Part shown: positions 1-57,716 of the stretch, piece by piece
Numbering within the stretch: position 1 is the stretch's first letter
Layout of the letters: each line of letters starts with the position of its first letter
NCBI RefSeq assembly: GCF_045037415.1
Contig: NZ_CP173438.1
Length of the DNA stretch: 64,000 nt
Strand: one strand, 5' to 3'
Source: Escherichia coli
GTDB taxonomy: Bacteria > Pseudomonadota > Gammaproteobacteria > Enterobacterales > Enterobacteriaceae
Notes under the pieces: generated by a model
Databases searched by the model: none
What the model was told of the DNA's origin: nothing
What the model saw: only the letters and a program-made list of their open reading frames with translations
Position numbers and translations under genes: made by a program

Positions 1-2
1 AG

Positions 3-1625
3 CGTCAGTCGTTCGAGCCGCACTGGCGCGAGTTGAGTGATTACATCAACCCGCGTGGTTCCCGCTTTCTGACTTCTGAGGCCAACCGTAACGATCGGCG
101 CAATACACGCATTATTGATTCGACCGGGACTATGGCGGCGCGCACTCTCGCCAGCGGCATGATGTCAGGCATCACAAGCCCCGCGCGTCCGTGGTTTCGC
201 CTGGCTACGCCAGATCCTGAAATGATGGATTATGGCCCTGTTAAGTTGTGGCTTGAGGCGGTGCAGAACCGCATGAACGATATGTTCAATAAGTCGAATC
301 TCTATCAGTCTCTGCCGCAGTTATACGGAAGCCTCGGCACATACAGCACTGGTGCAATGGCAGTGCTGGAGGATGACGAGGACATCATTCGCACAATGCC
401 ATTCCCGATAGGCAGTTACTACCTGGCTAACTCACCTCGTGGCAGTGTGGACACCTGTTTTCGCAAGTTCTCTATGACTGTTCGTCAGCTTGTTCAGGAG
501 TTCGGGCTAAATAACGTCAGCGAATCCGTAAAAAGCATGTGGGAAAGCGGCACCTACGAGAAGTGGATTGACGTGATGCATTCGGTTTACCCGAACATTG
601 ACCGCGATACATCGAAGCTGGATAGCAAGAACAAGCCATTCAAATCGGTTTATTACGAGGTTGGTGGCGATAACGACAAGTTGTTGCGTGAGTCCGGATT
701 TGATGAGTTTCCAATTATGGCTCCGCGCTGGGAAGTTAACGGCGAAGATGTTTATGGATCATCATGCCCGGGTATGCTGGCGCTTGGACCTGTTAAGGCA
801 TTGCAGCTTCTCCAGAAGCGCAAGTCGCAGTTGATTGATAAAGCCACCAATCCGCCGATGGTTGCTCCGACTTCCCTCAAGAATCAGCGCGCCTCCCTTC
901 TTCCTGGCGACATCACGTATATCGATCAGATTACTGGTCAGGATGGCTTCAGGCCTGCTTATCTGGTTAACCCCAGTACAGCAGATTTGGTAGCAGACAT
1001 TCAGGACACTCGTCAAATCATTAACAGCGCCTACTTTGTCGATCTGTTCATGATGTTGCAGAACATCAATACCCGCTCGATGCCTGTTGAAGCGGTGATC
1101 GAAATGAAAGAAGAAAAACTTCTGATGTTGGGGCCGGTTCTGGAGCGCCTGAACGACGAATGTCTTAATCCTCTCATTGACCGCGCTTTCTCGATGATGG
1201 TGCGTAAAAACATGCTGCCGCCACCGCCAGACGTGATGGAAGGTATGCCCCTGAAGGTCGAATACATTTCCGTCATGGCTCAGGCGCAGAAGTCTATCGG
1301 CCTGTCCAGTCTGGCGTCCACGGTTAACTTCATTGGTCAACTTGCGCAAGCGAAACCAGAAGCTCTCGACAAACTCAACGTTGATCAGGCGATCGATGCA
1401 TTCGCTGATATGTCCGGAGTGTCTCCAACCGTCATTGTTCCGCAGGAACAGGTTGAGCAGGCTCGCCAGCAACGGGCACAGCAGCAACAGCAACAACAAA
1501 TGATGGCGGTGGGGATGGCGGCGGCACAGGGTGCCAAGACGCTAAGCGAAGCTAAAACTTCGGATCCGAGTGTTTTGACAGCTATGGCGAATGCAGTTAG
1601 TGGTCAGGGTGGGCAATCACAATGA
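3..1625 (+). CDS. Portal (head-to-tail connector) protein, 5' end outside window
   Basis: Frame is open to the window edge; at least 540 aa; sits just upstream of scaffold and capsid genes; Gln-rich C-terminus. Confidence 0.7.
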   Translation, partial: RQSFEPHWRELSDYINPRGSRFLTSEANRNDRRNTRIIDSTGTMAARTLASGMMSGITSPARPWFRLATPDPEMMDYGPVKLWLEAVQNRMNDMFNKSNLYQSLPQLYGSLGTYSTGAMAVLEDDEDIIRTMPFPIGSYYLANSPRGSVDTCFRKFSMTVRQLVQEFGLNNVSESVKSMWESGTYEKWIDVMHSVYPNIDRDTSKLDSKNKPFKSVYYEVGGDNDKLLRESGFDEFPIMAPRWEVNGEDVYGSSCPGMLALGPVKALQLLQKRKSQLIDKATNPPMVAPTSLKNQRASLLPGDITYIDQITGQDGFRPAYLVNPSTADLVADIQDTRQIINSAYFVDLFMMLQNINTRSMPVEAVIEMKEEKLLMLGPVLERLNDECLNPLIDRAFSMMVRKNMLPPPPDVMEGMPLKVEYISVMAQAQKSIGLSSLASTVNFIGQLAQAKPEALDKLNVDQAIDAFADMSGVSPTVIVPQEQVEQARQQRAQQQQQQQMMAVGMAAAQGAKTLSEAKTSDPSVLTAMANAVSGQGGQSQ

Positions 1626-1918
1626 CAGATTACGAAGACGATCAACTGAAAGAAGAAAACGCCCGTAAGCAACGTGACATGGCGCAGCGTGAAATTGATG
1701 ACATTCGCTTTGTCATGAGCAGTGAACAAGGGCGTCGCGTTGTCTGGTCGGTGCTGGAGAAAGGCCGTGTGTTTTCCGCTATCTCACCGATGGACGCTAT
1801 GGCAATGGCATTTAATGAGGGGCAACGCAATCTGGCGCTGGAACTGTTTCAGCGCGTTATGGCGCATTGCCCTGAACAGTATTTGAAGATGGCCAAAGAG
1901 GCCAGTGAACAGGAGTGA
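1622..1918 (+). CDS. Hypothetical phage protein (98 aa)
   Basis: ATGA overlap with portal stop; co-oriented in the late operon. Confidence 0.6.
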   Translation: MTDYEDDQLKEENARKQRDMAQREIDDIRFVMSSEQGRRVVWSVLEKGRVFSAISPMDAMAMAFNEGQRNLALELFQRVMAHCPEQYLKMAKEASEQE

Positions 1919-1920
1919 TC

Positions 1921-2616
1921 ATGAATTTATTTGAGCGTTTGCTGTATCGCCGTCTTTGCAATGAGCAACCAGTCGATGGTGGAGCAGCTCCGGCTGCGTC
2001 AGAACCGTCAGCGCCTGCAGGTGATAACCCTGCTCCAGTTGGTGATCCATCACAACCGGAAGGTGATAAGCCACAACCTGTTGCTGATGGCGATAAACCT
2101 GCTGATGACAAAAAGCCTGAAAACGATAAGCAGGGTGAAAAAAAGGACGGCGATAAACCAGAGGGTGCGCCTGAGAAGTACGAGTTTCAGGCTGCCGAAG
2201 GCGTAGAGCTGGATACAGAAGCGTTGAAGGAATTCGAGCCGGTGGCGCGAGAACTTAACCTGACCAACGAGCAAGCGCAAAAGCTGGTTGATGCTTATCC
2301 GAAGATTCTGGCAGGTGTTCAGCAGCGCCAGGCAGAAGCCTGGCAGAAAACAACCGAGCAGTGGGCTGCGGATGTAAAAGCTGACAAAGAAATCGGTGGC
2401 GGCAAGTTGATTTCTAACCTTAGCGTCGCACAGCGTGCGCTTGACCAGTTCGGGACACCTGAACTCAAAGAATATCTGAACACCACCGGGCTGGGTAATC
2501 ACCCTGATCTGGTCAAAACGTTCGTGAGAATCGGAAAGGCGATGTCTGAAGATGGCATGGTCACCGGTGGTAATGAAGGCCAGCGTAGTGCGGCCGAAGT
2601 GCTCTATGGCAAATAA
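1921..2616 (+). CDS. Putative scaffolding protein
   Basis: AGGAG RBS then ATG at 1921; acidic Pro/Lys/Asp-rich N-terminus then helical region; position between portal and capsid. Confidence 0.6.
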   Translation: MNLFERLLYRRLCNEQPVDGGAAPAASEPSAPAGDNPAPVGDPSQPEGDKPQPVADGDKPADDKKPENDKQGEKKDGDKPEGAPEKYEFQAAEGVELDTEALKEFEPVARELNLTNEQAQKLVDAYPKILAGVQQRQAEAWQKTTEQWAADVKADKEIGGGKLISNLSVAQRALDQFGTPELKEYLNTTGLGNHPDLVKTFVRIGKAMSEDGMVTGGNEGQRSAAEVLYGK

Positions 2617-2624
2617 GAGAGGAA

Positions 2625-3617
2625 ATGACAATGGCTGTTAAAGGCTTAACTGCGCTAACGCTGGCTGACTGGGGTAAGCGCGTCGATCCAAACGGGAAAG
2701 TCGATAAGATTATCGAGCTTCTCGGTCAAACAAACCCGATCCTTCAGGATATGCCTTTTGTCGAAGGGAACCTTCCTACCGGACACCGAACCACCATTCG
2801 TTCTGGTTTACCTTCAGCTACCTGGCGTTTGCTGAACTATGGCGTACAGCCAAGCAAATCAACCACAGTGCAGGTAACCGATTACGTTGGCATGCTGGAA
2901 ACCTATGCTGAAGTCGATAAGTCACTGGCTGATCTGAACGGTAATACTGCCGAATTCCGCCTGTCTGAAGACCGCGCATTTATTGAAGCGATGAATCAGC
3001 AGATGGCGCAGACACTGTTTTATGGTGATTCCAGCGTTAACCCTCAGCAGTTTATGGGACTGTCCTCCCGCTATTCCAGCCTGTCTGCGGGTAATGCTCA
3101 GAACATCATTGATGCTGGTGGCACGAGTACAGATAACACCTCAATCTGGTTAGTGGTGTGGGGCGAAAACACCGTGCATGGCATCTTCCCGAAAGGGCAG
3201 AAGGCTGGCATCCAGATGGAAGATAAAGGCCAGGTGACACTGGAAGATGCGAATGGCGGCAAGTACGAAGGCTACCGTACCCATTACAAATGGGACAACG
3301 GACTTGCTCTGCGTGACTGGCGTTATGTTGTTCGCATTGCAAACATCGATGTCAGCAATCTTTCAGAACCTTCCTCTGCCGCAAATATTGCGAAGTTGAT
3401 GGTTAAAGCACTGCATCGCATTCCAAATCGTGGCATGGGTCGCCCGGTGTTCTACATGAACCGCACTGTAGGCCAGGCTCTTGATCTGCAATCTCTGGAG
3501 AAAACATCTCTGGCGATCAGCGTAAAAGAGACAGAAGGCGAGTGGTGGACTTCATTCCGTGGTGTACCAATCCGTGAAACTGATGCGCTTCTGGAAACAG
3601 AAGCCCGCGTGGTGTAA
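2625..3617 (+). CDS. Major capsid protein (about 330 aa)
   Basis: Position after scaffold; size typical of HK97-fold capsid proteins; ATG at 2631 has the better RBS spacing; stem-loop immediately downstream. Confidence 0.7.
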   Translation: MTMAVKGLTALTLADWGKRVDPNGKVDKIIELLGQTNPILQDMPFVEGNLPTGHRTTIRSGLPSATWRLLNYGVQPSKSTTVQVTDYVGMLETYAEVDKSLADLNGNTAEFRLSEDRAFIEAMNQQMAQTLFYGDSSVNPQQFMGLSSRYSSLSAGNAQNIIDAGGTSTDNTSIWLVVWGENTVHGIFPKGQKAGIQMEDKGQVTLEDANGGKYEGYRTHYKWDNGLALRDWRYVVRIANIDVSNLSEPSSAANIAKLMVKALHRIPNRGMGRPVFYMNRTVGQALDLQSLEKTSLAISVKETEGEWWTSFRGVPIRETDALLETEARVV

Positions 3618-8366: not shown

Positions 8367-8905
8367 TGTGTAACCCAGCCATCGCTTTGGTTGCCGTCAC
8401 AGTGGCATCCACAGCCGCGTCAATGTACAGCCAGAGCAAGCAGGCAAAATACCAGTCAGCCATAGCTGATCGGAATGCTGAAATTGCTGAAGCTCAGGCA
8501 CAGGATTCAATCAATCGTGGGAATATTGAAGCGGATCAGCGTCGTCGTGAAATGCGTCAACGCTCAGGCACTGCGGCGGCCACTATGGGGGCTACCGGTG
8601 CGGAATTAAGTAGCGGAACAGCTCTTGACGTTTTTGCGGATAATGCTCAGTTCGGCGCTCTTGATGCGTTAACGACAGTGAATAATGCTCAGCGTGAGGC
8701 ATATGGGTATCAGGTTCAGGGAATGAATGCTCAGGCACAGGGGGCTGCTGCTCAGTCGGCTGCTAAATCATCGATGACCAGCACTTTGTTAACAGCACCA
8801 CTAAAAGCATACGGTGCATACCAGATGGGCGGAGGAACGTGGAGCCCATTCTCTCAGAAGGCTGCGCCGATTTCTGCTGCTGTTGGCACTCCAACCGGTC
8901 GATAA
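8366..8905 (+). CDS. Internal virion protein with hydrophobic N-terminus (179 aa)
   Basis: TAATG overlap; hydrophobic N-terminal segment; position equivalent to T7 gp14. Confidence 0.5.
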   Translation: MCNPAIALVAVTVASTAASMYSQSKQAKYQSAIADRNAEIAEAQAQDSINRGNIEADQRRREMRQRSGTAAATMGATGAELSSGTALDVFADNAQFGALDALTTVNNAQREAYGYQVQGMNAQAQGAAAQSAAKSSMTSTLLTAPLKAYGAYQMGGGTWSPFSQKAAPISAAVGTPTGR

Positions 8906-8917
8906 GGGGATAATAAG

Positions 8918-11431
8918 ATGCCAGTTGTACCAACAACATCGGGCCGTCAGGTTCAGAGCAGAGGGATTTCGACGCAGGGATTCTCATCGTTTCAGACGCC
9001 AAATGTCGGTGATGTACTTGGCGATGTTGCAGAGCAATATGCAGGTATTATTGCGCAGGCAAAACAGCGTGCGAATGTTGCTATGGCTCAGGATGCTTCT
9101 CTTAGCTTAAGCCAGATAAGCAGCGATCTGCTGAATAACCCTGAAACAGGTTTGCTTAACCTGAAAGGGAAAAATGCTATTGGAAAAGGTCAGGAGTATA
9201 CGCAGCAGTTTGATGCCCAGGTCGAGCAACTGGCTATGTCGCTGCCGGATGAACAGGCTCGTAATGCTTTCATGCAGCAGGCGCAGCAGCAGCGCATTCA
9301 GTTCACTACGCAGGCCGGGCGGCACGAGATAGGGCAAATAAATGCCTACGAAGAAGGCCAGTTTCAGGCGACGCTGCTGAACAATGGTAAAAATGCCGCA
9401 GCATTGTATGGCGACAACGCCGCATACGTATTGGCTAATAAGCAAACTTTCCAGCAAATTGAGGATTACGGCATTGCGCATGGCTGGAGCGACGAGCAAA
9501 TCCAGGCCAAGAAAATCGAGTTTAAAGAGAAGGTTGCTGATGCAGCATTGTCCCAGTGGTCGGCAAACAATGCGACCGCATTCATCCAAAGTAATGGCGA
9601 GTTAAGTGATACTGCTGCTGGAGCTAGCCGTGCTGTAGCAGATAGTGATTCTTCCGAGCGTGCCCGTGGCATACGCAACAATAACCCAGGAAATCTCGAA
9701 TACAGCAAAACCAATCCGTGGGTAGGCCAGACCGGTGATGATGGTCGATTTGCTAAATTCGAAACACCTGAACACGGGATTCGTGCATTAGGGCGGAACC
9801 TGATGTCGTATCAGAGGCAGGGTATTGATACCGTCAGCGAGATAATTAATCGCTGGGCACCGCCTACTGATAAAAATGACACTATGTCGTATATCAAAGC
9901 AGTGTGCGAACAACTTGGCGTTTCTGCTGATGAGCCTCTCGATGCATCTAATCCTGATACCCTGAAGGCGCTTTGTGCAGCCATTATCCATCATGAGAAC
10001 GGTAGCCAGCCATACAGTGATCAGCTGTTAAGTGCTGGTGTCAGTGCAGCACTTGGTTTATCAACAATTCCAACCAACACCAAACGCTATACCGGTAATG
10101 CAGCATTCGATGCGGCATCTCCTGAGGCGCAGGCAAGTTTTATGCGACAGGCGGATCAACTGCGTCGGCAGCAGCAGGCTGAATATAAAACGATGATTGA
10201 CAGCCAAGTTCGCGATGCGACAGCTGCGTATATGCGTGGCGTTGAATTTCCTAACCCACCTGGTGAGGCTGATTTTATTGCAGCTTATGGAGTCAGAGAA
10301 GGAAACCTGCGATATACCGAGTTCAGAAATACGCAAATCGCCGGACAGTATATAGGCTCTTTCCGCAACATGCCGACAAGCAGCATTACAGCATATGTTG
10401 AGCAATTACGCCCGGATACTGGTGAGACAGGGGAGGGTTATGCGGCACGAGCCGCTCTTTATGACAACGTTGTGTCGGCTGCAAGTCAGGTGATAAAGCA
10501 GCGACAGGCTGATCCTGTACAGTTCTCTCTTGCCGCCGGACAGGCAAAGCCTATCGACATGAGCAATAAGGATAACTTTGGACAGAGCGTTGCCTTGCGT
10601 GCTGCTCAGGTCAGTGACCTTGCTAAGTCATATGGCACTCCACTGACGTTCTTTTCCAAAGACGAGGCCAATCAGATCGGTGTTTTCTTTCGTAATGCGC
10701 CCGTTTCCCAACAGGCAGCATATCTCGATACCATCAGGCAGAGCACTGGTGGTGGGCAGGTGTATATGTCAGCACTACAGCAGATCAGTGCCAACGCTCC
10801 ATCTGCTGCCGTTGCCGGGATACTGATGGATAAGCCAGGTGGTATTTTGGCAGAAAAAAACTGGTTTAATCCGGATGTTTCCGTGTCTCCTGAAACCGCT
10901 GCGCAGACAATTCTTGCTGGCGCGGCGGCTCGTAAAGGTACTGATGACGCGAAAGGTATTCCGATGCCTAAAGATGCTGATCTTCGCCTTGAGTTTTCTG
11001 ACATGGTGAAGGATGCATTTGCTGGTGATGCTCAGGGGGCATCAATGGCATACGAGATCGCAAAGGACTATTACGCTGGTGTGATGGCGAAAAAAGGCGT
11101 GGTATCAGGCGAAATTGACAATGATATCTGGAAACAGGCTGTTAACGTAGCTACAGGTGGCGTGCATGACTATAACGGAATGGGGAATGTTCTTTTGCCT
11201 TGGGGAATGTCTGCAGAGCAATTCGATAAGCAGGTTAATCAGGTTTGGAATGAACAAGTTGTTGGCACAGGGATAAAAACACCGCCTGGTCAGTATGGTT
11301 TGCAAAGTTACGGCGATAGTCAGTACCTGGTGAAACTTGGTACTGGTTATCTGCTAAAAGATGATGGTTCTCCCGTTGTTCTTGATCTGACACAGAAGCG
11401 TCAGAGATTCTCCGGAGATATTCCGCAATGA
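8918..11431 (+). CDS. Large internal virion (ejection/core) protein, 837 aa
   Basis: RBS AAGGGGA; first of three consecutive large proteins equivalent to podovirus core proteins; contains a GIRNNNPGNL motif block. Confidence 0.6.
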   Translation: MPVVPTTSGRQVQSRGISTQGFSSFQTPNVGDVLGDVAEQYAGIIAQAKQRANVAMAQDASLSLSQISSDLLNNPETGLLNLKGKNAIGKGQEYTQQFDAQVEQLAMSLPDEQARNAFMQQAQQQRIQFTTQAGRHEIGQINAYEEGQFQATLLNNGKNAAALYGDNAAYVLANKQTFQQIEDYGIAHGWSDEQIQAKKIEFKEKVADAALSQWSANNATAFIQSNGELSDTAAGASRAVADSDSSERARGIRNNNPGNLEYSKTNPWVGQTGDDGRFAKFETPEHGIRALGRNLMSYQRQGIDTVSEIINRWAPPTDKNDTMSYIKAVCEQLGVSADEPLDASNPDTLKALCAAIIHHENGSQPYSDQLLSAGVSAALGLSTIPTNTKRYTGNAAFDAASPEAQASFMRQADQLRRQQQAEYKTMIDSQVRDATAAYMRGVEFPNPPGEADFIAAYGVREGNLRYTEFRNTQIAGQYIGSFRNMPTSSITAYVEQLRPDTGETGEGYAARAALYDNVVSAASQVIKQRQADPVQFSLAAGQAKPIDMSNKDNFGQSVALRAAQVSDLAKSYGTPLTFFSKDEANQIGVFFRNAPVSQQAAYLDTIRQSTGGGQVYMSALQQISANAPSAAVAGILMDKPGGILAEKNWFNPDVSVSPETAAQTILAGAAARKGTDDAKGIPMPKDADLRLEFSDMVKDAFAGDAQGASMAYEIAKDYYAGVMAKKGVVSGEIDNDIWKQAVNVATGGVHDYNGMGNVLLPWGMSAEQFDKQVNQVWNEQVVGTGIKTPPGQYGLQSYGDSQYLVKLGTGYLLKDDGSPVVLDLTQKRQRFSGDIPQ

Positions 11432-16343: not shown

Positions 16344-16503
16344 AACGAATGCCACCGCCACCCGGGCGGGAATCCGCAGAACGCCCACCGCAGCGGGAGC
16401 CGTCAGCAGCAGTGTCGCTGTCGTGCTGACAACGACCGGCAAAGGCCTGAGTTGAAGCTACCAGAGACAACAAAACGAACAGTGCAGCAAATGCTTTTTT
16501 CAT
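16342..16503 (-). CDS. Possible small secreted peptide (53 aa)
   Basis: Signal-peptide-like N-terminus MKKAFAALFVLLSLVASTQAFA; GC-rich low-complexity mature part with two Cys; weak RBS. Confidence 0.3.
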   Translation of the reverse strand: MKKAFAALFVLLSLVASTQAFAGRCQHDSDTAADGSRCGGRSADSRPGGGGIR

Positions 16504-16575
16504 TGTGAAATTTCCATCTATAAGCCACCTCAATGTGGCGTCAATGAGTGTAGCACTGACTTTTGTTTCGTCCAC

Positions 16576-16597
16576 AAAAAAGCCCGCGCTGCGGGCT
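16576..16597 (-). terminator. Rho-independent terminator of the reverse cassette
   Basis: GCCCGC-GCT-GCGGGC hairpin followed by a U-run on the minus strand, directly after the 16602 stop. Confidence 0.7.
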
Positions 16598-16601
16598 TCT
16601 A

Positions 16602-17234
16602 TTAATGCAGTTTATCTTTGCTTATAACCAGTAGTCTGTGGGTATGCACATCTTTATCACTGCCCCAACAGAAATCAGCCCACTGGCTATAGAAATCATC
16701 CCATGATGTCATGAAGCTAAGAGGTCTATCTTCTTCAGAGCCATCTGAAACGTATACATTATATCCTGGGGTGTTTATAGCCCAAGAAATCATTCTTTCC
16801 CAGAATCTTCTCCCATCGATTGTTTGTTGCTCATCAGATACAACGATCGCATATTGCTCTAGGAAGAACTGAAAAAAAATCTGAGGCAAACCATGAACAG
16901 CACGGTCATGAATAACATTAGGCGTACGCCATACCATGATCTGCGTACATGTTCTTTTGGCTTCGACGATATCTTCCCGAAAGATTAACTTAACCGCATA
17001 CACCGTTTCTGGAGTATCGCTGGTAGTAATCATTCTGTAATGATCGCCATTACAAGATTTTACAAGGCGATAACCATAAGGTGTTGTGAATCCCGGAAGA
17101 ACGAAATCAACCACACCTTTCGCTAAGTAGCTTTCGGTGTGACTAGTGTTCTTCTCAGACATGTTCAGTTTTCTATCGAAATCTGCTTCTGGGATAATGT
17201 ATGGCATCGCTTTTCTTGTTGTATTTGTTCTCAT
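16602..17234 (-). CDS. Uncharacterised cargo protein, 210 aa
   Basis: Strong RBS GGGAGG 5 nt before ATG; own sigma70-like promoter and operator upstream; no family recognised; AT-rich. Confidence 0.75.
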   Translation of the reverse strand: MRTNTTRKAMPYIIPEADFDRKLNMSEKNTSHTESYLAKGVVDFVLPGFTTPYGYRLVKSCNGDHYRMITTSDTPETVYAVKLIFREDIVEAKRTCTQIMVWRTPNVIHDRAVHGLPQIFFQFFLEQYAIVVSDEQQTIDGRRFWERMISWAINTPGYNVYVSDGSEEDRPLSFMTSWDDFYSQWADFCWGSDKDVHTHRLLVISKDKLH

Positions 17235-17293
17235 TTCGTCCTCCCATGTTTGGCTACAGGACGCGTTTTGAAGGGAAGATTAAAAATGCTTTC

Positions 17294-17308
17294 TTACCCT
17301 TGAGGTAA
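17294..17308. promoter_or_regulatory. Operator-like palindrome TTACC-N5-GGTAA (copy 1) overlapping the start region of the 16602-17234 gene
   Basis: Perfect 5-bp inverted repeat with 5-bp spacer; abuts the predicted -10. Confidence 0.5.
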
Positions 17309-17336
17309 TAGTACGCTATTCACCCCCAGTCTGCAA
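17308..17336 (-). promoter_or_regulatory. Sigma70-like promoter for the 210-aa gene
   Basis: Minus-strand TTGCAG-N17-TACTAT, about 75 nt upstream of the ATG. Confidence 0.45.
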
Positions 17337-17380
17337 TCTGTACAGAATTATTTAAAGGCACATCCCTGTGCCGCCGCCCG

Positions 17381-18037
17381 TCAGAAGAACCCTGCCTTGT
17401 CGTTGATGTACTCCGCGTGCGTCTGGATATCACGCAGGCATTTGCTCACACCAACGATGTAGCAGAACATGGTGGTCAGCTCCGCCGCCGCGCCCGATAC
17501 GTCGTGCCCGTCGTCCTGTAACTGGTTCAGCAGATTCATCAGCAGTGAGTTCTCCGTCAGGCCGAGAACACCAGACGGCGAGTGAATCAGGCTGCGGTAG
17601 CCGGGCTTCAGTGGGGCACTGTATTCTTTTTTGTCTTCCAGCTTGATCGCCTCCATAATGGCGGGCATGAAGCCTGACAAGACCTTCTCCACTTTTGTTT
17701 CTTGTTGTCTTAAACGTTTCTCGCATTCAATGAAGTAGCGTCGCACCTGGCGACCTTTTTCGTTACGCTCGACCATCGCCAGCTCTTTGGCTGTATCAAG
17801 GGTGAGGTGGTACTCTTTGCGGTTGTGGCCGCCTCTACCAGATGTTTGCTTTCCCAAATTGGAAAGCAAAATATAGTCTTGATTTTCAATGAATTCGTAT
17901 TCTGATATGCGATTTGTAATCCATGCTGCAAACACCTTTTTAACACCTAAAAAAGCGTGCAGATCGCGGGCATTACAAAGTAGGGCTGTTTCGTTAGATA
18001 TAGTGCCGTTGAATACGGGGATGAGTTGAGCGTTCAT
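17381..18037 (-). CDS. Antirepressor-like protein: AntA-type N-terminal domain plus C-terminal domain paralogous to the small SOS-controlled protein
   Basis: GGAG RBS; N-terminal motif [27 protein letters not shown] typical of AntA/AntB antirepressor domains; C-terminal 70 aa about 40% identical to the 18357-18614 product. Confidence 0.65.
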
Positions 18038-18196
18038 GATGGCGTCTCCACTTAGCGAATTACATCACCACCGCTGAGAACCAATCAGATGGTGGTGAAC
18101 TGAACGGAGTTGGTCTTACCGGCCTAAGTGGTACCGGCGTCCTTTCGGACCCCCATTCAGCCCACCATAATTCTGGCATGACTGTGCTATACGCAT

Positions 18197-18218
18197 AAAA
18201 AAACCACGTCTGGCGTGG
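18197..18218 (-). terminator. Putative rho-independent terminator between the small SOS-controlled gene and the antirepressor gene
   Basis: CCACG-N5-CGTGG hairpin followed by seven U on the minus strand; short stem. Confidence 0.4.
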
Positions 18219-18308
18219 TATGCGCCACTTAGTAATCCGGGAGAACCAATCCCGGCACTGGATTTTGCCAGTGCCCGATTACTATGGCACAAGAGGAGTG
18301 CGATGTAA

Positions 18309-18327
18309 ATTTACCGCAAAGGTAAAT
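18309..18327. promoter_or_regulatory. Operator-like palindrome ATTTACC-N5-GGTAAAT (copy 2)
   Basis: 7-bp inverted repeat with 5-bp spacer, same core as copies 1 and 3. Confidence 0.45.
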
Positions 18328-18356
18328 ATAAGCACTCCATTTGGTAATTTCAAACC

Positions 18357-18614
18357 TTATCTGGTTTGTTTTCGTAATTGTTCGGCACAATAGTCGAGAT
18401 GTGTTTGCAGATCCTGCATAGACATCTGTGAGCTGGTGACGTAGTTAATCAGTGCAGTCAGTTCGGCAAGTGGGCCATCGACATTAAATCCATCCTTATC
18501 GAGATCCCGGAGTAATTTCATCAAGTGCGATCCCTCCACCAGTGACCTGACGCCTCCCGGCGTGTGAATCCTTTCGGTAAATCCGTCTTCCAGTGGATAG
18601 TGATACTGCTGCAT
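18357..18614 (-). CDS. Small SOS-box-controlled protein (about 85 aa), candidate SOS-inducible antirepressor
   Basis: GGAGAA RBS before ATG at 18614; LexA box 19 nt upstream; homologous to C-terminus of the adjacent AntA-like protein; ORF track extends to 18737 but upstream part covers promoter and operator. Confidence 0.6.
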   Translation of the reverse strand: MQQYHYPLEDGFTERIHTPGGVRSLVEGSHLMKLLRDLDKDGFNVDGPLAELTALINYVTSSQMSMQDLQTHLDYCAEQLRKQTR

Positions 18615-18633
18615 CTTATCTTCTCCATGCAAT

Positions 18634-18653
18634 AACTGTATATTTATACAGTA
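18634..18653. promoter_or_regulatory. LexA (SOS) box
   Basis: AACTGTATATTTATACAGTA matches the E. coli LexA consensus TACTGTATATATATACAGTA at 18 of 20 positions, with CTGT-N8-ACAG intact. Confidence 0.75.
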
Positions 18654-18689
18654 GCAAATAATTTGTTTGCTATCCAGCACGTTTTGCAA

Positions 18690-18706
18690 ATTACCTGAAA
18701 GGTAAT
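18690..18706. promoter_or_regulatory. Operator-like palindrome ATTACC-N5-GGTAAT (copy 3) upstream of the LexA box
   Basis: Perfect 6-bp inverted repeat with 5-bp spacer. Confidence 0.5.
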
Positions 18707-18809
18707 ATCTATTCGTATTTACAGCCTTTCTATCCATATGTGGTTTTCCAGGTAATAGAATAACCAGATATGCGGCGCAACGGGTGCTGCGACTATCTGG
18801 AGATTTAAC

Positions 18810-21461
18810 ATGACGGTTTCAACCGAAGTTGACCACAACGAATACACCGGTAACGGAGCTACGACATCATTTCCGTATACCTTCCGTATTTTCAAAAAAT
18901 CCGACCTGGTTGTTCAGGTGTCTGACCTGAACGGGAACGTAACAGAATTGGTTCTGGATACTGACTACACAGTAACCAATGCTGGAGGATATAATGGCGG
19001 TAATGTAATTCTGTCGAAGGCGTTGGCTAACGGTTATCATATTTCTATATCACGAGAGCTCCCGGTTACGCAGGATACTGATTTGCGTAATCAGGGTAAG
19101 TTCTTCGCTGAGGTACATGAAGACGCGTTCGATAAACTGACAATGCTTATTCAAAAGTGTTTTTCATGGATGAGGTTAGCACTTATAAAACCAAGCATTC
19201 TGGCTAACTATTATGATGCAAAAAATAATAAGATATCAAATCTAGCAAATGCCACTGACAGAAACGATGCTGTCAATAAAGGTTATGTTGATGATCTTTT
19301 TACTGGAGGTGTAACGCCTACATCTAACAGCGCTAAAAACGATATTTTTACAAATCACCAAAGAAAGATTGTAGCTACGATGCCGCTTCTTTTTCCTGAA
19401 TATGATGCGATTATGGCTGCTAACCCGTCAGCAACTTATATGTATCCTCAAGGATTCTGCGTTAGCGAAGATTTGATATACATCACTTATCCATTTGAGC
19501 CTAAACAGACGAATAATGTCGTCGCAGTATTTAACATATCTGGTATTTATCAAGGTTATTTCTATGTTCAGGCTGGCGGCCCAGGCTTCGCTGCTGAAGG
19601 AATCGTGGTTACGTCAGACTATGGCCCCAAAAAAATGTTTGTTGGTCACACAAACGGAATACTGCGTGAATTTAATATGGAGGGGGCATTATACGGAAGC
19701 AATCTGCCTCTTGTACAAAACCATGATGTTGGATTATTCAACCAGTTCAGCTACAGAAGAGGTATATGGCTCGTTGAGCAGAATGCGCCAGAAGTAGGAC
19801 AGAAAATCACAAGAACTGTACTTGCAGTGTTCGACAGTGGTTTCAATCGCCTGTCAACTATAACGCTGCCGTTACATGATGTTGGGTATGTAACTAAAAG
19901 CACCTCACCTTATGCGCCTTATTTCAACAAGCGTCAGGGTATTGCGGTAGGTGATAACTACTTTGTCTGCGGCTATGGCGGCTTCATAGCTGATGGGGCA
20001 GGAAGCGCAGGATATAACGAATATCAGGGCAGCAAAGTTTTTAACCCTGACGGTACAAAGCGAACTGAATCAATGCTTCATCCTCAGGCCATGATGGATT
20101 TAATGAAAGCCGCAGGATTGAACGTCACTCGCATAGAAAATGAAGGCGTTTGTGTTTCTCAGGATGGAAAATCCATTTATTCACTTTACATTCATCAGGA
20201 AAGAACTGGCTCTGAACCTTACAATTCAGGTTTGGTTATTTTCGAAGATTTCTCCACTGATAAAGATGCTATCGATTTTACACCTGCATCCAGGCTTTAC
20301 CGCGGATTTGATATCGATCACGCGAGCATTGGGGTATATCCCCGTAGTGCGAAGGGGATTGTTAACCCTGTAGATGGTACGTTGTTCACTAACATGACTG
20401 AAATTCTTCGCTATATGCAGGAGATGAGTCAGAAGGCATTTAATTTTTACACAGGGACTGTCAGCATTGCTGATATATCTGGCGTGGCAATCCCTTCCAG
20501 CACATATGTTGAAATACTGAATGCGAATAATCAGACTTTTATAGTCAACTATTATTCATCTGATAGTGGCATTAGTTATTTGGTTGCAACTAATCCTTCT
20601 GGTGACTTTGTATTTGTGCGCCAGCGACCGGCACAGTGGGCATCTAACTTAACCATTCAGCAAAACGCAGATCCTGATACAAACCAATTAAACCGCATCA
20701 CTGCATCATCATATGCCGGTGCAACTACAAACTCTCAGAAAATATTGGTCCTTGACCAGCAGGCTACAGCTAGCGCAAATAGCTTGGTATTGGGCGGTAG
20801 TTCTTCTGTGTTTAGGTCTGCCACCACGGTGGATATTGCATGCAACAGCGACCCGACAGCATTGGGAGGAACCATACGCTGGCGGTTTTATGATACAGGT
20901 CTTCGCCCGTTTGCTGACAATACCTATAATTTTGGTCAGGCATCGTTTCGTATTAAAGACGCCTACTTTGCAAATGCCCCAACCGTTTCATCAGATGCCA
21001 CGCTGAAAACCAATCCCGAGGCAATATCAGATTTAAGTGAAATGCTTTCTTCTGATAGAGACAGCATTCTTGATGCCTGGGGCGATATTTCTGTTGTGGC
21101 GTATCGATGGCTCGACGCTATATCCATGAAGGGCGATGGTGCCAGATGGCATTTTGGCGTCATGGCTCAGCAGGTAAGGGATGTATTCTTGGCGCACGGA
21201 ATTGATGGAACCAGATTTGGCCTTCTTTGCTATGACGAGTGGGATGATATTTTTGAGCCGGTAATCGCGACTAAAGAGATTACCGATACGTCTGGTGAGT
21301 TGGTCACCGTCGAATATGACACCGGAGAACAGAGGCTGGTTAAAAAAGCGGGTAGTTCATGGGGTATACGGCCTGACCAGTGCGCTTGGCTTGAGGCTGC
21401 ATATCAGCGCCGTCGATGCGATCGTATTGAAGAGCGACTCGAACTATTGGAATCAAAATAA
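18810..21461 (+). CDS. Tailspike protein with C-terminal intramolecular chaperone (peptidase S74-like) domain, 883 aa
   Basis: RBS CTGGAG; conserved-looking N-terminal virion-anchor region; C-terminal block (RWHFGVMAQQVRDVF...) resembles the self-cleaving chaperone domain of endosialidases and tail fibres. Confidence 0.75.
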   Translation: MTVSTEVDHNEYTGNGATTSFPYTFRIFKKSDLVVQVSDLNGNVTELVLDTDYTVTNAGGYNGGNVILSKALANGYHISISRELPVTQDTDLRNQGKFFAEVHEDAFDKLTMLIQKCFSWMRLALIKPSILANYYDAKNNKISNLANATDRNDAVNKGYVDDLFTGGVTPTSNSAKNDIFTNHQRKIVATMPLLFPEYDAIMAANPSATYMYPQGFCVSEDLIYITYPFEPKQTNNVVAVFNISGIYQGYFYVQAGGPGFAAEGIVVTSDYGPKKMFVGHTNGILREFNMEGALYGSNLPLVQNHDVGLFNQFSYRRGIWLVEQNAPEVGQKITRTVLAVFDSGFNRLSTITLPLHDVGYVTKSTSPYAPYFNKRQGIAVGDNYFVCGYGGFIADGAGSAGYNEYQGSKVFNPDGTKRTESMLHPQAMMDLMKAAGLNVTRIENEGVCVSQDGKSIYSLYIHQERTGSEPYNSGLVIFEDFSTDKDAIDFTPASRLYRGFDIDHASIGVYPRSAKGIVNPVDGTLFTNMTEILRYMQEMSQKAFNFYTGTVSIADISGVAIPSSTYVEILNANNQTFIVNYYSSDSGISYLVATNPSGDFVFVRQRPAQWASNLTIQQNADPDTNQLNRITASSYAGATTNSQKILVLDQQATASANSLVLGGSSSVFRSATTVDIACNSDPTALGGTIRWRFYDTGLRPFADNTYNFGQASFRIKDAYFANAPTVSSDATLKTNPEAISDLSEMLSSDRDSILDAWGDISVVAYRWLDAISMKGDGARWHFGVMAQQVRDVFLAHGIDGTRFGLLCYDEWDDIFEPVIATKEITDTSGELVTVEYDTGEQRLVKKAGSSWGIRPDQCAWLEAAYQRRRCDRIEERLELLESK

Positions 21462-57140: not shown

Positions 57141-57716
57141 ATGACGCAACAAATCACCCTCGTTAAAGACAAAATTCTCTCCGATAACTATTTCACCCTG
57201 CACAACATTACTTACGATCTCACGCGCAAAGATGGCGAAGTTATCCGCCATAAACGTGAAGTTTACGATCGCGGTAATGGTGCGACGATCCTCCTGTACA
57301 ACGCGAAGAAAAAGACCGTGGTTCTGATTCGCCAGTTCCGCGTCGCTACCTGGGTTAATGGCAATGAAAGCGGGCAACTGATTGAAACCTGCGCCGGGCT
57401 GCTGGATAACGACGAACCGGAAGTGTGCATTCGCAAAGAAGCGATTGAAGAGACGGGCTATGAAGTTGGCGAAGTCCGCAAATTATTTGAACTGTATATG
57501 TCGCCAGGCGGTGTGACTGAGCTAATCCACTTTTTTATCGCCGAATACAGTGACAGCCAGCGCGCTAACGCCGGTGGTGGTGTCGAAGATGAAGATATTG
57601 AAGTGCTTGAGCTGCCGTTCAGCCAGGCGCTGGAGATGATTAAAACCGGCGAGATACGTGACGGTAAGACGGTGTTATTGCTTAACTATTTGCAAATGTC
57701 ACATTTAATGGACTGA
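57141..57716 (+). CDS. nudK: GDP-mannose pyrophosphatase NudK
   Basis: 191 aa from [13 protein letters not shown]; Nudix box. Confidence 0.9.

Follow-up and report, generated by a model that had tools for sequence, protein, structure and literature searches.

A near-consensus LexA box in front of a small antirepressor gene in a phiV10-like prophage of Escherichia coli, with likeness to the switch of Salmonella phage SPC32H

Kim & Ryu (2013) reportedly showed that LexA controls the antirepressor gene ant of phage SPC32H through a box equivalent to the one that is the subject of this work, and that the phage repressor, Rep, is not cleaved. For the two proteins, the statements on SPC32H in PMC9638917 describe an Ant tetramer that binds a pair of Rep dimers and takes apart the Rep tetramer, the form that binds DNA, and the account of Rep domain architecture in PMC9986798 gives two HTH regions and a C-terminal domain for tetramerisation and Ant binding. 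The part of PMC7380047 that deals with Salmonella prophages, SPC32H included, leads from the SOS response through LexA cleavage to Ant, and it outlines a shared logic in which the repressor is non-cleavable and SOS is sensed through a LexA-repressed small antirepressor gene. The same logic is found in Tum of coliphage 186 (expressed from the LexA-repressed p95) and in the antirepressors of the Gifsy and Fels-2 prophages (Lemire et al. 2011). Antirepressor synthesis is placed under RNA control in immI of P1 and P7 (c4-icd-ant) and in isrK-orf45-anrP of Gifsy-1, where a C4 RNA lies between the target pairs a1/b1 and a2/b2, b2 extends over the ribosome-binding site of the antirepressor gene, and an IsrK-type leader with a terminator is combined with a repressor operator at the promoter. 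In P22, the immI region (mnt-arc-ant-sar) puts an antirepressor module next to the tailspike gene in a temperate podovirus, as in the prophage described here; P22 ant is controlled by Mnt, Arc, and the sar RNA, not by LexA, and the P22 repressor C2 is RecA-cleavable.

The locus analyzed here lies in a 64-kb stretch of E. coli DNA (hereafter, the window) and consists of a LexA (SOS) box at 18634..18653 and, downstream of it on the minus strand, a gene for an 85-aa small antirepressor (ant, 18357..18614, stop codon included). Judged by sequence comparison, it is a so far unannotated E. coli ortholog of the known SPC32H switch. It resembles SPC32H (Kim & Ryu 2013; Kim et al. 2016; PDB 5D50, 5D4Z) in genus, gene position, distance of the box, and operator-like motif, and its products are similar as well: Ant is 88% identical to its SPC32H counterpart, and the Rep homolog has HTH domains and lacks an S24 domain. 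It is unlike SPC32H in its E. coli host, in a Rep that is 42% identical, in a box that lies nearer to the consensus, and in an IsrK/C4/ant2 cassette located behind ant. The understanding of the mechanism, already established for SPC32H, is left unchanged by these data, and the gain lies mainly in annotation and in a possible link to an RNA cassette.

The prophage and its antirepressor and repressor genes

The prophage DNA in the window is 94–99% identical to that of phiV10-type phages (Uetakevirus, epsilon15-like podoviruses). Its right part, portal gene through lysis genes, occupies the window from position 1 to about 23400 and is followed by the host genes yfgI and yfgH from 23566 onward; because the window starts in the portal gene, the early region is outside it, on the left. 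The chromosome of E. coli strain 447 is 100% identical over positions 1–3000 of the window and 99.9% identical over 16500–19000, and it carries the prophage between guaA and yfgI. Phage ZX5, which encodes an identical Ant and is 98% identical across the ant region, integrates at the same guaA site and is mitomycin-C inducible (PMC9782041). Some of the phiV10-like prophages integrated at guaA contain O-antigen-modifying or tailspike-diversity genes. The gene order (injection-protein genes, ant, tailspike gene) is common to SPC32H, epsilon15, phiV10, and the window, with ant divergent from the tailspike gene. In the window, the intergenic region between these two genes is 195 bp long, and the tailspike/lysis unit starts at 18810 on the plus strand.

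The original prediction spoke of a small prophage gene downstream of the box, and this gene can now be identified as an antirepressor gene. Its identity to SPC32H ant (KC911856) extends over 83 of 85 residues (tblastn), and chain E of PDB 5D50, the solved structure of SPC32H Ant bound to Rep, is named ‘Anti-repressor protein’ and matches Ant residues 2–84 (E=4e-47). In the Salmonella phages SPC32H and SPC32N, the 88%-identical gene is annotated as ‘ant: anti-repressor protein’. PHROG matches were to phrog_450, phrog_15539, and the C-terminus of phrog_1760, and searches of Pfam and NCBIfam with Ant returned no significant family. The comparison with tum of phage 186, also part of the prediction, is valid for the regulatory logic and not for the protein family, because Pfam gave no significant match for Ant, which is not a Tum/DinI relative. 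More generally, no sequence relationship to 186 Tum or to the Gifsy and Fels-2 antirepressors was detected with Pfam and PHROG, and the phage described here, unlike those, is a podovirus.

Unannotated genes of the E. coli phages ZX5, phiv142-3, TL-2011b, and phiV10 encode products that are 97–100% identical to Ant (tblastn), including the 100%-identical ‘hypothetical protein’ of ZX5. Of 5426 complete E. coli genomes, 528 carry ant together with its promoter at ≥90% identity, and every listed annotation row that covers the gene in these genomes reads ‘hypothetical protein’. For this gene, which goes by that name in roughly 10% of the complete genomes, the present analysis supplies a function and a regulatory input.

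The rep gene lies outside the window, and Rep was examined by proxy in strain 447, in which a 194-aa homolog is encoded at 8596–9180 of the prophage locus (L011), about 10 kb to the left of the window start. This protein is 42% identical to SPC32H Rep and matches PDB 5D50_A (E=4e-42) as well as the C-terminal fragment 5D4Z. The Pfam domains identified in it are all HTH, and the self-cleavage domain Peptidase_S24 is absent. By these sequence comparisons, Ant and Rep of the prophage are orthologous to the SPC32H pair. Ant is strongly conserved between the phages of E. coli and Salmonella but Rep is not, even though both groups share the operator-like motif; with Rep 42% identical compared to 88% for Ant, the pairing of Ant with Rep is assumed.

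The LexA box, its conservation, and the candidate ant promoter

The box has the sequence AACTGTATATTTATACAGTA (TACTGTATAAATATACAGTT on the minus strand) and differs from the SOS-box consensus TACTGTATATATATACAGTA by two mismatches, i.e., 18 of 20 positions are matched. It is the only site in the 64-kb window with three or fewer mismatches to the consensus; none of 100 dinucleotide-preserving shuffles of the window produced such a site, and the number expected by chance is 0. The bare arms, CTGT-N8-ACAG, are found four times in the window (0.77 expected), the other three copies having GC-rich spacers. We also scored the box using a symmetrised and approximate LexA position weight matrix, for which 23 E. 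coli SOS boxes served as training sites. With this approximate matrix, the box reached 28.4 bits (consensus: 30.7 bits; best training site: 27.7 bits), thereby outscoring all 23 training sites, and the SPC32H box reached 25.5 bits. The claim of a near-consensus LexA box was borne out by the mismatch count, by its uniqueness in the window, by the shuffles, and by the approximate matrix, in which the next-best site of the window reached 12.2 bits. This runner-up (AACTGTATATGTCGCCAGGC; 57490–57509) belongs to the host chromosome, a long way from the prophage, and is unlikely to be significant.

The box is separated from the ant ATG (18614–18612) by exactly 19 nt (18633–18615) and by 7 nt from GGAGAA, a Shine-Dalgarno sequence read from the minus strand (18621..18626) that ends 6 nt before the ATG. 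The position of the box 19 nt upstream of the gene, with a GGAGAA ribosome-binding site and an ATG at 18614, agrees in its coordinates with what had been predicted.

To describe conservation, we aligned the ant–tailspike intergenic region of 10 sequences (the window, phiV10, SPC32H, SPC32N, epsilon15, Tyrion, BUCT554, and three Klebsiella phages), which represent phages of four host genera (Escherichia, Salmonella, Enterobacter, and Klebsiella). The distances from the box to GGAG and to the ATG are identical in all 10 sequences, and the GGAG of the Shine-Dalgarno sequence is invariant. Within the box, the arms TA.TGT and ATA.AGT are invariant and the six central bases are variable, with exceptions in the arms of SPC32N, which carries a C-to-A change, and of the three Klebsiella phages, which read ATGT instead of CTGT. 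Invariant arms around a variable centre are the conservation pattern of an operator, and purifying selection on the box arms is evident across the orthologous loci. SPC32H and SPC32N differ by two bases in the aligned region, one of which turns ACAG into AAAG in the box. Kim & Ryu (2013, J Virol 87:11775) reportedly found that a single change in the LexA site makes Ant expression constitutive, with SPC32N being that mutant, and the ACAG-to-AAAG change agrees with this report.

A broader sample was taken from IMG/VR, where the best 80 of 299 relatives were examined and 78 of these were informative (the loci of the other two are cut by contig ends). CTGT-N8-ACAG is kept in 77 of the 78 loci, and variation of the box among them is almost wholly confined to the spacer. 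Because the best 80 relatives are near-identical, they support conservation at the level of populations rather than over deep evolutionary distances. Two public contigs show unusual sequences at the box. In one (IMGVR_UViG_2563366870_000004, at about 1400–1500), unrelated DNA replaces the left half of the box and everything upstream of it (...CCCATAAACATACAGTT); either natural variation that disrupted the box or a rearrangement may lie behind this. In the other (IMGVR_UViG_3300045988_013119, positions 1–40), AGATGTGTATAAGAGACAG, which resembles a Nextera transposase adapter, is fused into the box at the contig end, and this fusion is an assembly artefact of the public contig.

Where the box lies relative to the ant promoter can be approached from the same alignment, in which two invariant blocks, TGGA.A (18676–18671) and TA.TGT (18653–18648), flank a variable spacer with a constant length of 17 nt. 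The blocks resemble a −35 and a −10 element, the latter coinciding with the box's left arm, and this favours a candidate P_ant on the minus strand at 18648..18676 (−35 TGGATA, 17-nt spacer, −10 TACTGT). In a simple sigma-70 scan, no candidate for P_ant reached the thresholds; an overlap of the box with −10/+1, which the original prediction had regarded as necessary, is plausible. Alternative elements (−10 TATAAA at 18648–18643 or −35 TTGCAA at 18689–18684) are possible and fail the simple scan too. The pairs TTGCAA/ACAAAT, TTGCTA/TATTGC, and TAGCAA/TATAAA were also considered by hand, the conservation pattern fitting only TGGATA/TACTGT. Weakness of the promoter would make sense here, since leaky expression of ant induces the prophage. 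Wherever the promoter elements are placed, LexA would be positioned between the −35 element and the ribosome-binding site.

Based on its sequence, its conservation, and the gene that it precedes, the 20-bp palindrome is very probably a functional, high-affinity LexA operator that silences ant in this phiV10-like prophage. The LexA–Ant–Rep mechanism of SPC32H is likewise very likely to operate here, all of its components being present at the sequence level. Upon DNA damage, RecA would be activated and LexA would cleave itself and leave the box, P_ant would fire, and the 85-aa Ant would be made. Ant would then bind the C-terminal domain of the non-cleavable Rep and dismantle the Rep tetramer; with Rep off its TTACC-N5-GGTAA operators, the lytic genes would be expressed and the prophage induced. 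We infer LexA binding, the exact promoter, and the Ant–Rep interaction in this prophage from the work on SPC32H and from established SOS biology. The mechanism predicts that phiV10-like prophages integrated at guaA are induced by DNA-damaging agents, antibiotics included, through LexA and Ant and not through repressor cleavage. A literature search combining phiV10 and LexA returned nothing relevant.

An IsrK/C4/ant2 cassette behind ant

Downstream of ant and in the same orientation, the window contains a cassette of two predicted RNAs and a second antirepressor gene. The first element is an IsrK-like RNA with the a1/b1 targets of C4 (18197..18274, minus strand; Rfam RF01394, 60.9 bits vs. a gathering score of 50), which ends in a predicted intrinsic terminator (18219–18203, minus strand); a further match, to RF03163 (c4-a1b1) at 18287–18234, is below its gathering score (36.2 bits). 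It is followed by a C4-type antisense RNA (18088..18172, minus strand; RF01695, 61.2 bits vs. a gathering score of 45) and by ant2 (17381..18037, minus strand), which encodes a 218-aa antirepressor with an N-terminal AntA domain (PF08346, E=8e-26) and a match to phrog_377 (‘anti-repressor Ant’). The C4 loop, CCACUUAG, is complementary over 8 nt to CUAAGUGG, present both at 18232–18225 (b1), inside the IsrK-like RNA, and at 18055–18048 (b2), over the ant2 Shine-Dalgarno sequence. The loop and both of its targets co-vary in phiV10 (CCUUUUAG with CUAAAAGG) and in Tyrion, so that with the window three phages show the pairing. A sigma-70 scan identified two promoter-like sites for the cassette on the minus strand (18353–18325, TTGAAA-17-TATATT; 18309–18281, TTTACA-17-(TG)CATAGT), and a Rep-operator-like palindrome, ATTTACC-N5-GGTAAAT (18309..18327), that abuts or overlaps them is conserved in phiV10 and Tyrion.

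In its arrangement, with a C4 RNA between a1/b1 and a2/b2, b2 over the antirepressor ribosome-binding site, an IsrK-type leader with a terminator, and a repressor operator at the promoter, the cassette is a module of the P1-immI/Gifsy-1-isrK type and is not new in kind. It is unlike P1 immI and Gifsy-1 in several respects. There is no frame comparable to icd or orf45, as the 50 nt between the end of C4 (18088) and the ant2 ATG (18037) contain no icd-like leader ORF, and C4 is directly followed by ant2. The cassette follows a LexA-controlled gene immediately, no terminator being predicted between the two, and the ant2 product has a C-terminal domain that is paralogous to the small Ant (residues 137–210, the C-terminal 74, are 42% identical to it). 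The C-terminus of Ant2 is also nearly identical to that of ZX5 ORF4, in which the Ant-type domain is fused to a Bro-N domain. Thus, the Ant module is found on its own as well as in fusion with N-terminal domains of different kinds. Overexpression of ZX5 ORF4 favoured the lytic cycle (PMC9782041); that study covers the large antirepressor alone and makes no mention of LexA or SPC32H.

The second antirepressor, Ant2, could account for some of the induction or for the whole of it. The box may be a LexA site and induction may nonetheless proceed mainly through the cassette, with a read-through IsrK-like RNA titrating C4 and freeing Ant2 translation, and the small Ant being one of two SOS outputs. 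We regard this as a serious possibility, if one with the odds against it. Its basis is that terminator prediction found nothing between the ant stop codon and 18219–18203, either in the window or in Tyrion, that the C4 loop is complementary to both b1 and b2 with covariation across three phages, and that the short IsrK of Gifsy-1 switches on antirepressor translation in trans (PMC4825925). Among eight relatives checked, the cassette is found downstream of ant and co-oriented with it in four (phiV10, Tyrion, Kp4865-1, and ST512-KPC3phi13.3). It is absent, however, from the other four (SPC32H, epsilon15, BUCT554, and BUCT711), and because the cassette-less SPC32H is induced through Ant alone, Ant suffices in this family. 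The cassette also has promoter-like sites of its own with a Rep-type operator, and read-through is suggested by the missing terminator prediction.

The two switches may also be joined. As no terminator is predicted after ant, LexA-controlled transcripts may supply a1/b1 RNA. It is conceivable, though on present evidence unlikely, that the ant transcript runs into the IsrK-like RNA and that the SOS response would deliver both Ant and a decoy that sequesters C4, unlocking Ant2 translation. If true, this would constitute a protein-plus-RNA feed-forward in which a LexA switch is joined to an RNA switch of the P1-immI type. The coupling of a LexA-controlled transcript to the cassette may be the one new point here.

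Other readings of the palindrome and further repeats in the region

The box lies within the divergent intergenic region and is palindromic, and could on these grounds be thought to control the tailspike/lysis unit (18810, plus strand) instead of ant. This is very improbable. The box is 19 nt from the ant ATG compared to 157 nt upstream of the tailspike ATG, and the sole promoter-like site for the tailspike gene, TAGAAT (18756–18761), which has an equivalent in SPC32H, is about 80 bp downstream of the box, too far for repression by occlusion. The box mutation in SPC32N was also reportedly described by Kim & Ryu (2013) as causing constitutive Ant and not altered tailspike expression. Least credible of all is a chance AT-rich inverted repeat, or coding sequence within a 126-aa CDS (ATG 18737), with no regulatory role: an in-frame ORF (18737–18357) does span the box, but the shuffles yielded no comparable site, the arms and centre vary as in an operator, and this longer ORF was rejected as the gene because the SPC32H CDS and the 86-residue crystallised chain both start at the equivalent of 18614, where a ribosome-binding site precedes the ATG.

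The divergent region contains further repeats. A Rep-operator-like palindrome, ATTACC-N5-GGTAAT (18690..18706), lies between ant and the tailspike gene and is invariant in the alignment of 10 sequences (18706–18690). It is outside both putative promoter cores, and could serve as a second control on ant, in tailspike control, or in looping. An inverted repeat that adjoins the LexA box, TAGCAAA-N7-TTTGCTA (18672–18652), lacks conservation outside the E. coli phages; it was rejected on this ground and is unlikely to be an operator.

The Rep-operator-like motif has the core TTACC-N5-GGTAA (≤1 mismatch), of which this prophage contains 14 copies where 0.68 would be expected; SPC32H has 18, compared to an expectation of 0.75. 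The copies cluster on both sides of rep and flank several other transcription units. In the window, they are located at 17294–17308, 18311–18325, and 18691–18705, the first of which is a third Rep-operator-like palindrome (17294..17308) with an exact core, between ant2 and the next minus-strand gene. In the strain 447 prophage locus (L011), copies start at 8462, 8524, 9236, 9284, 9621, 11567, 11629, 15762, 15780, and 18925. Equivalent sites in the GenBank record of epsilon15 are annotated as ‘protein_bind repressor’, including one upstream of the ant homolog gp19.
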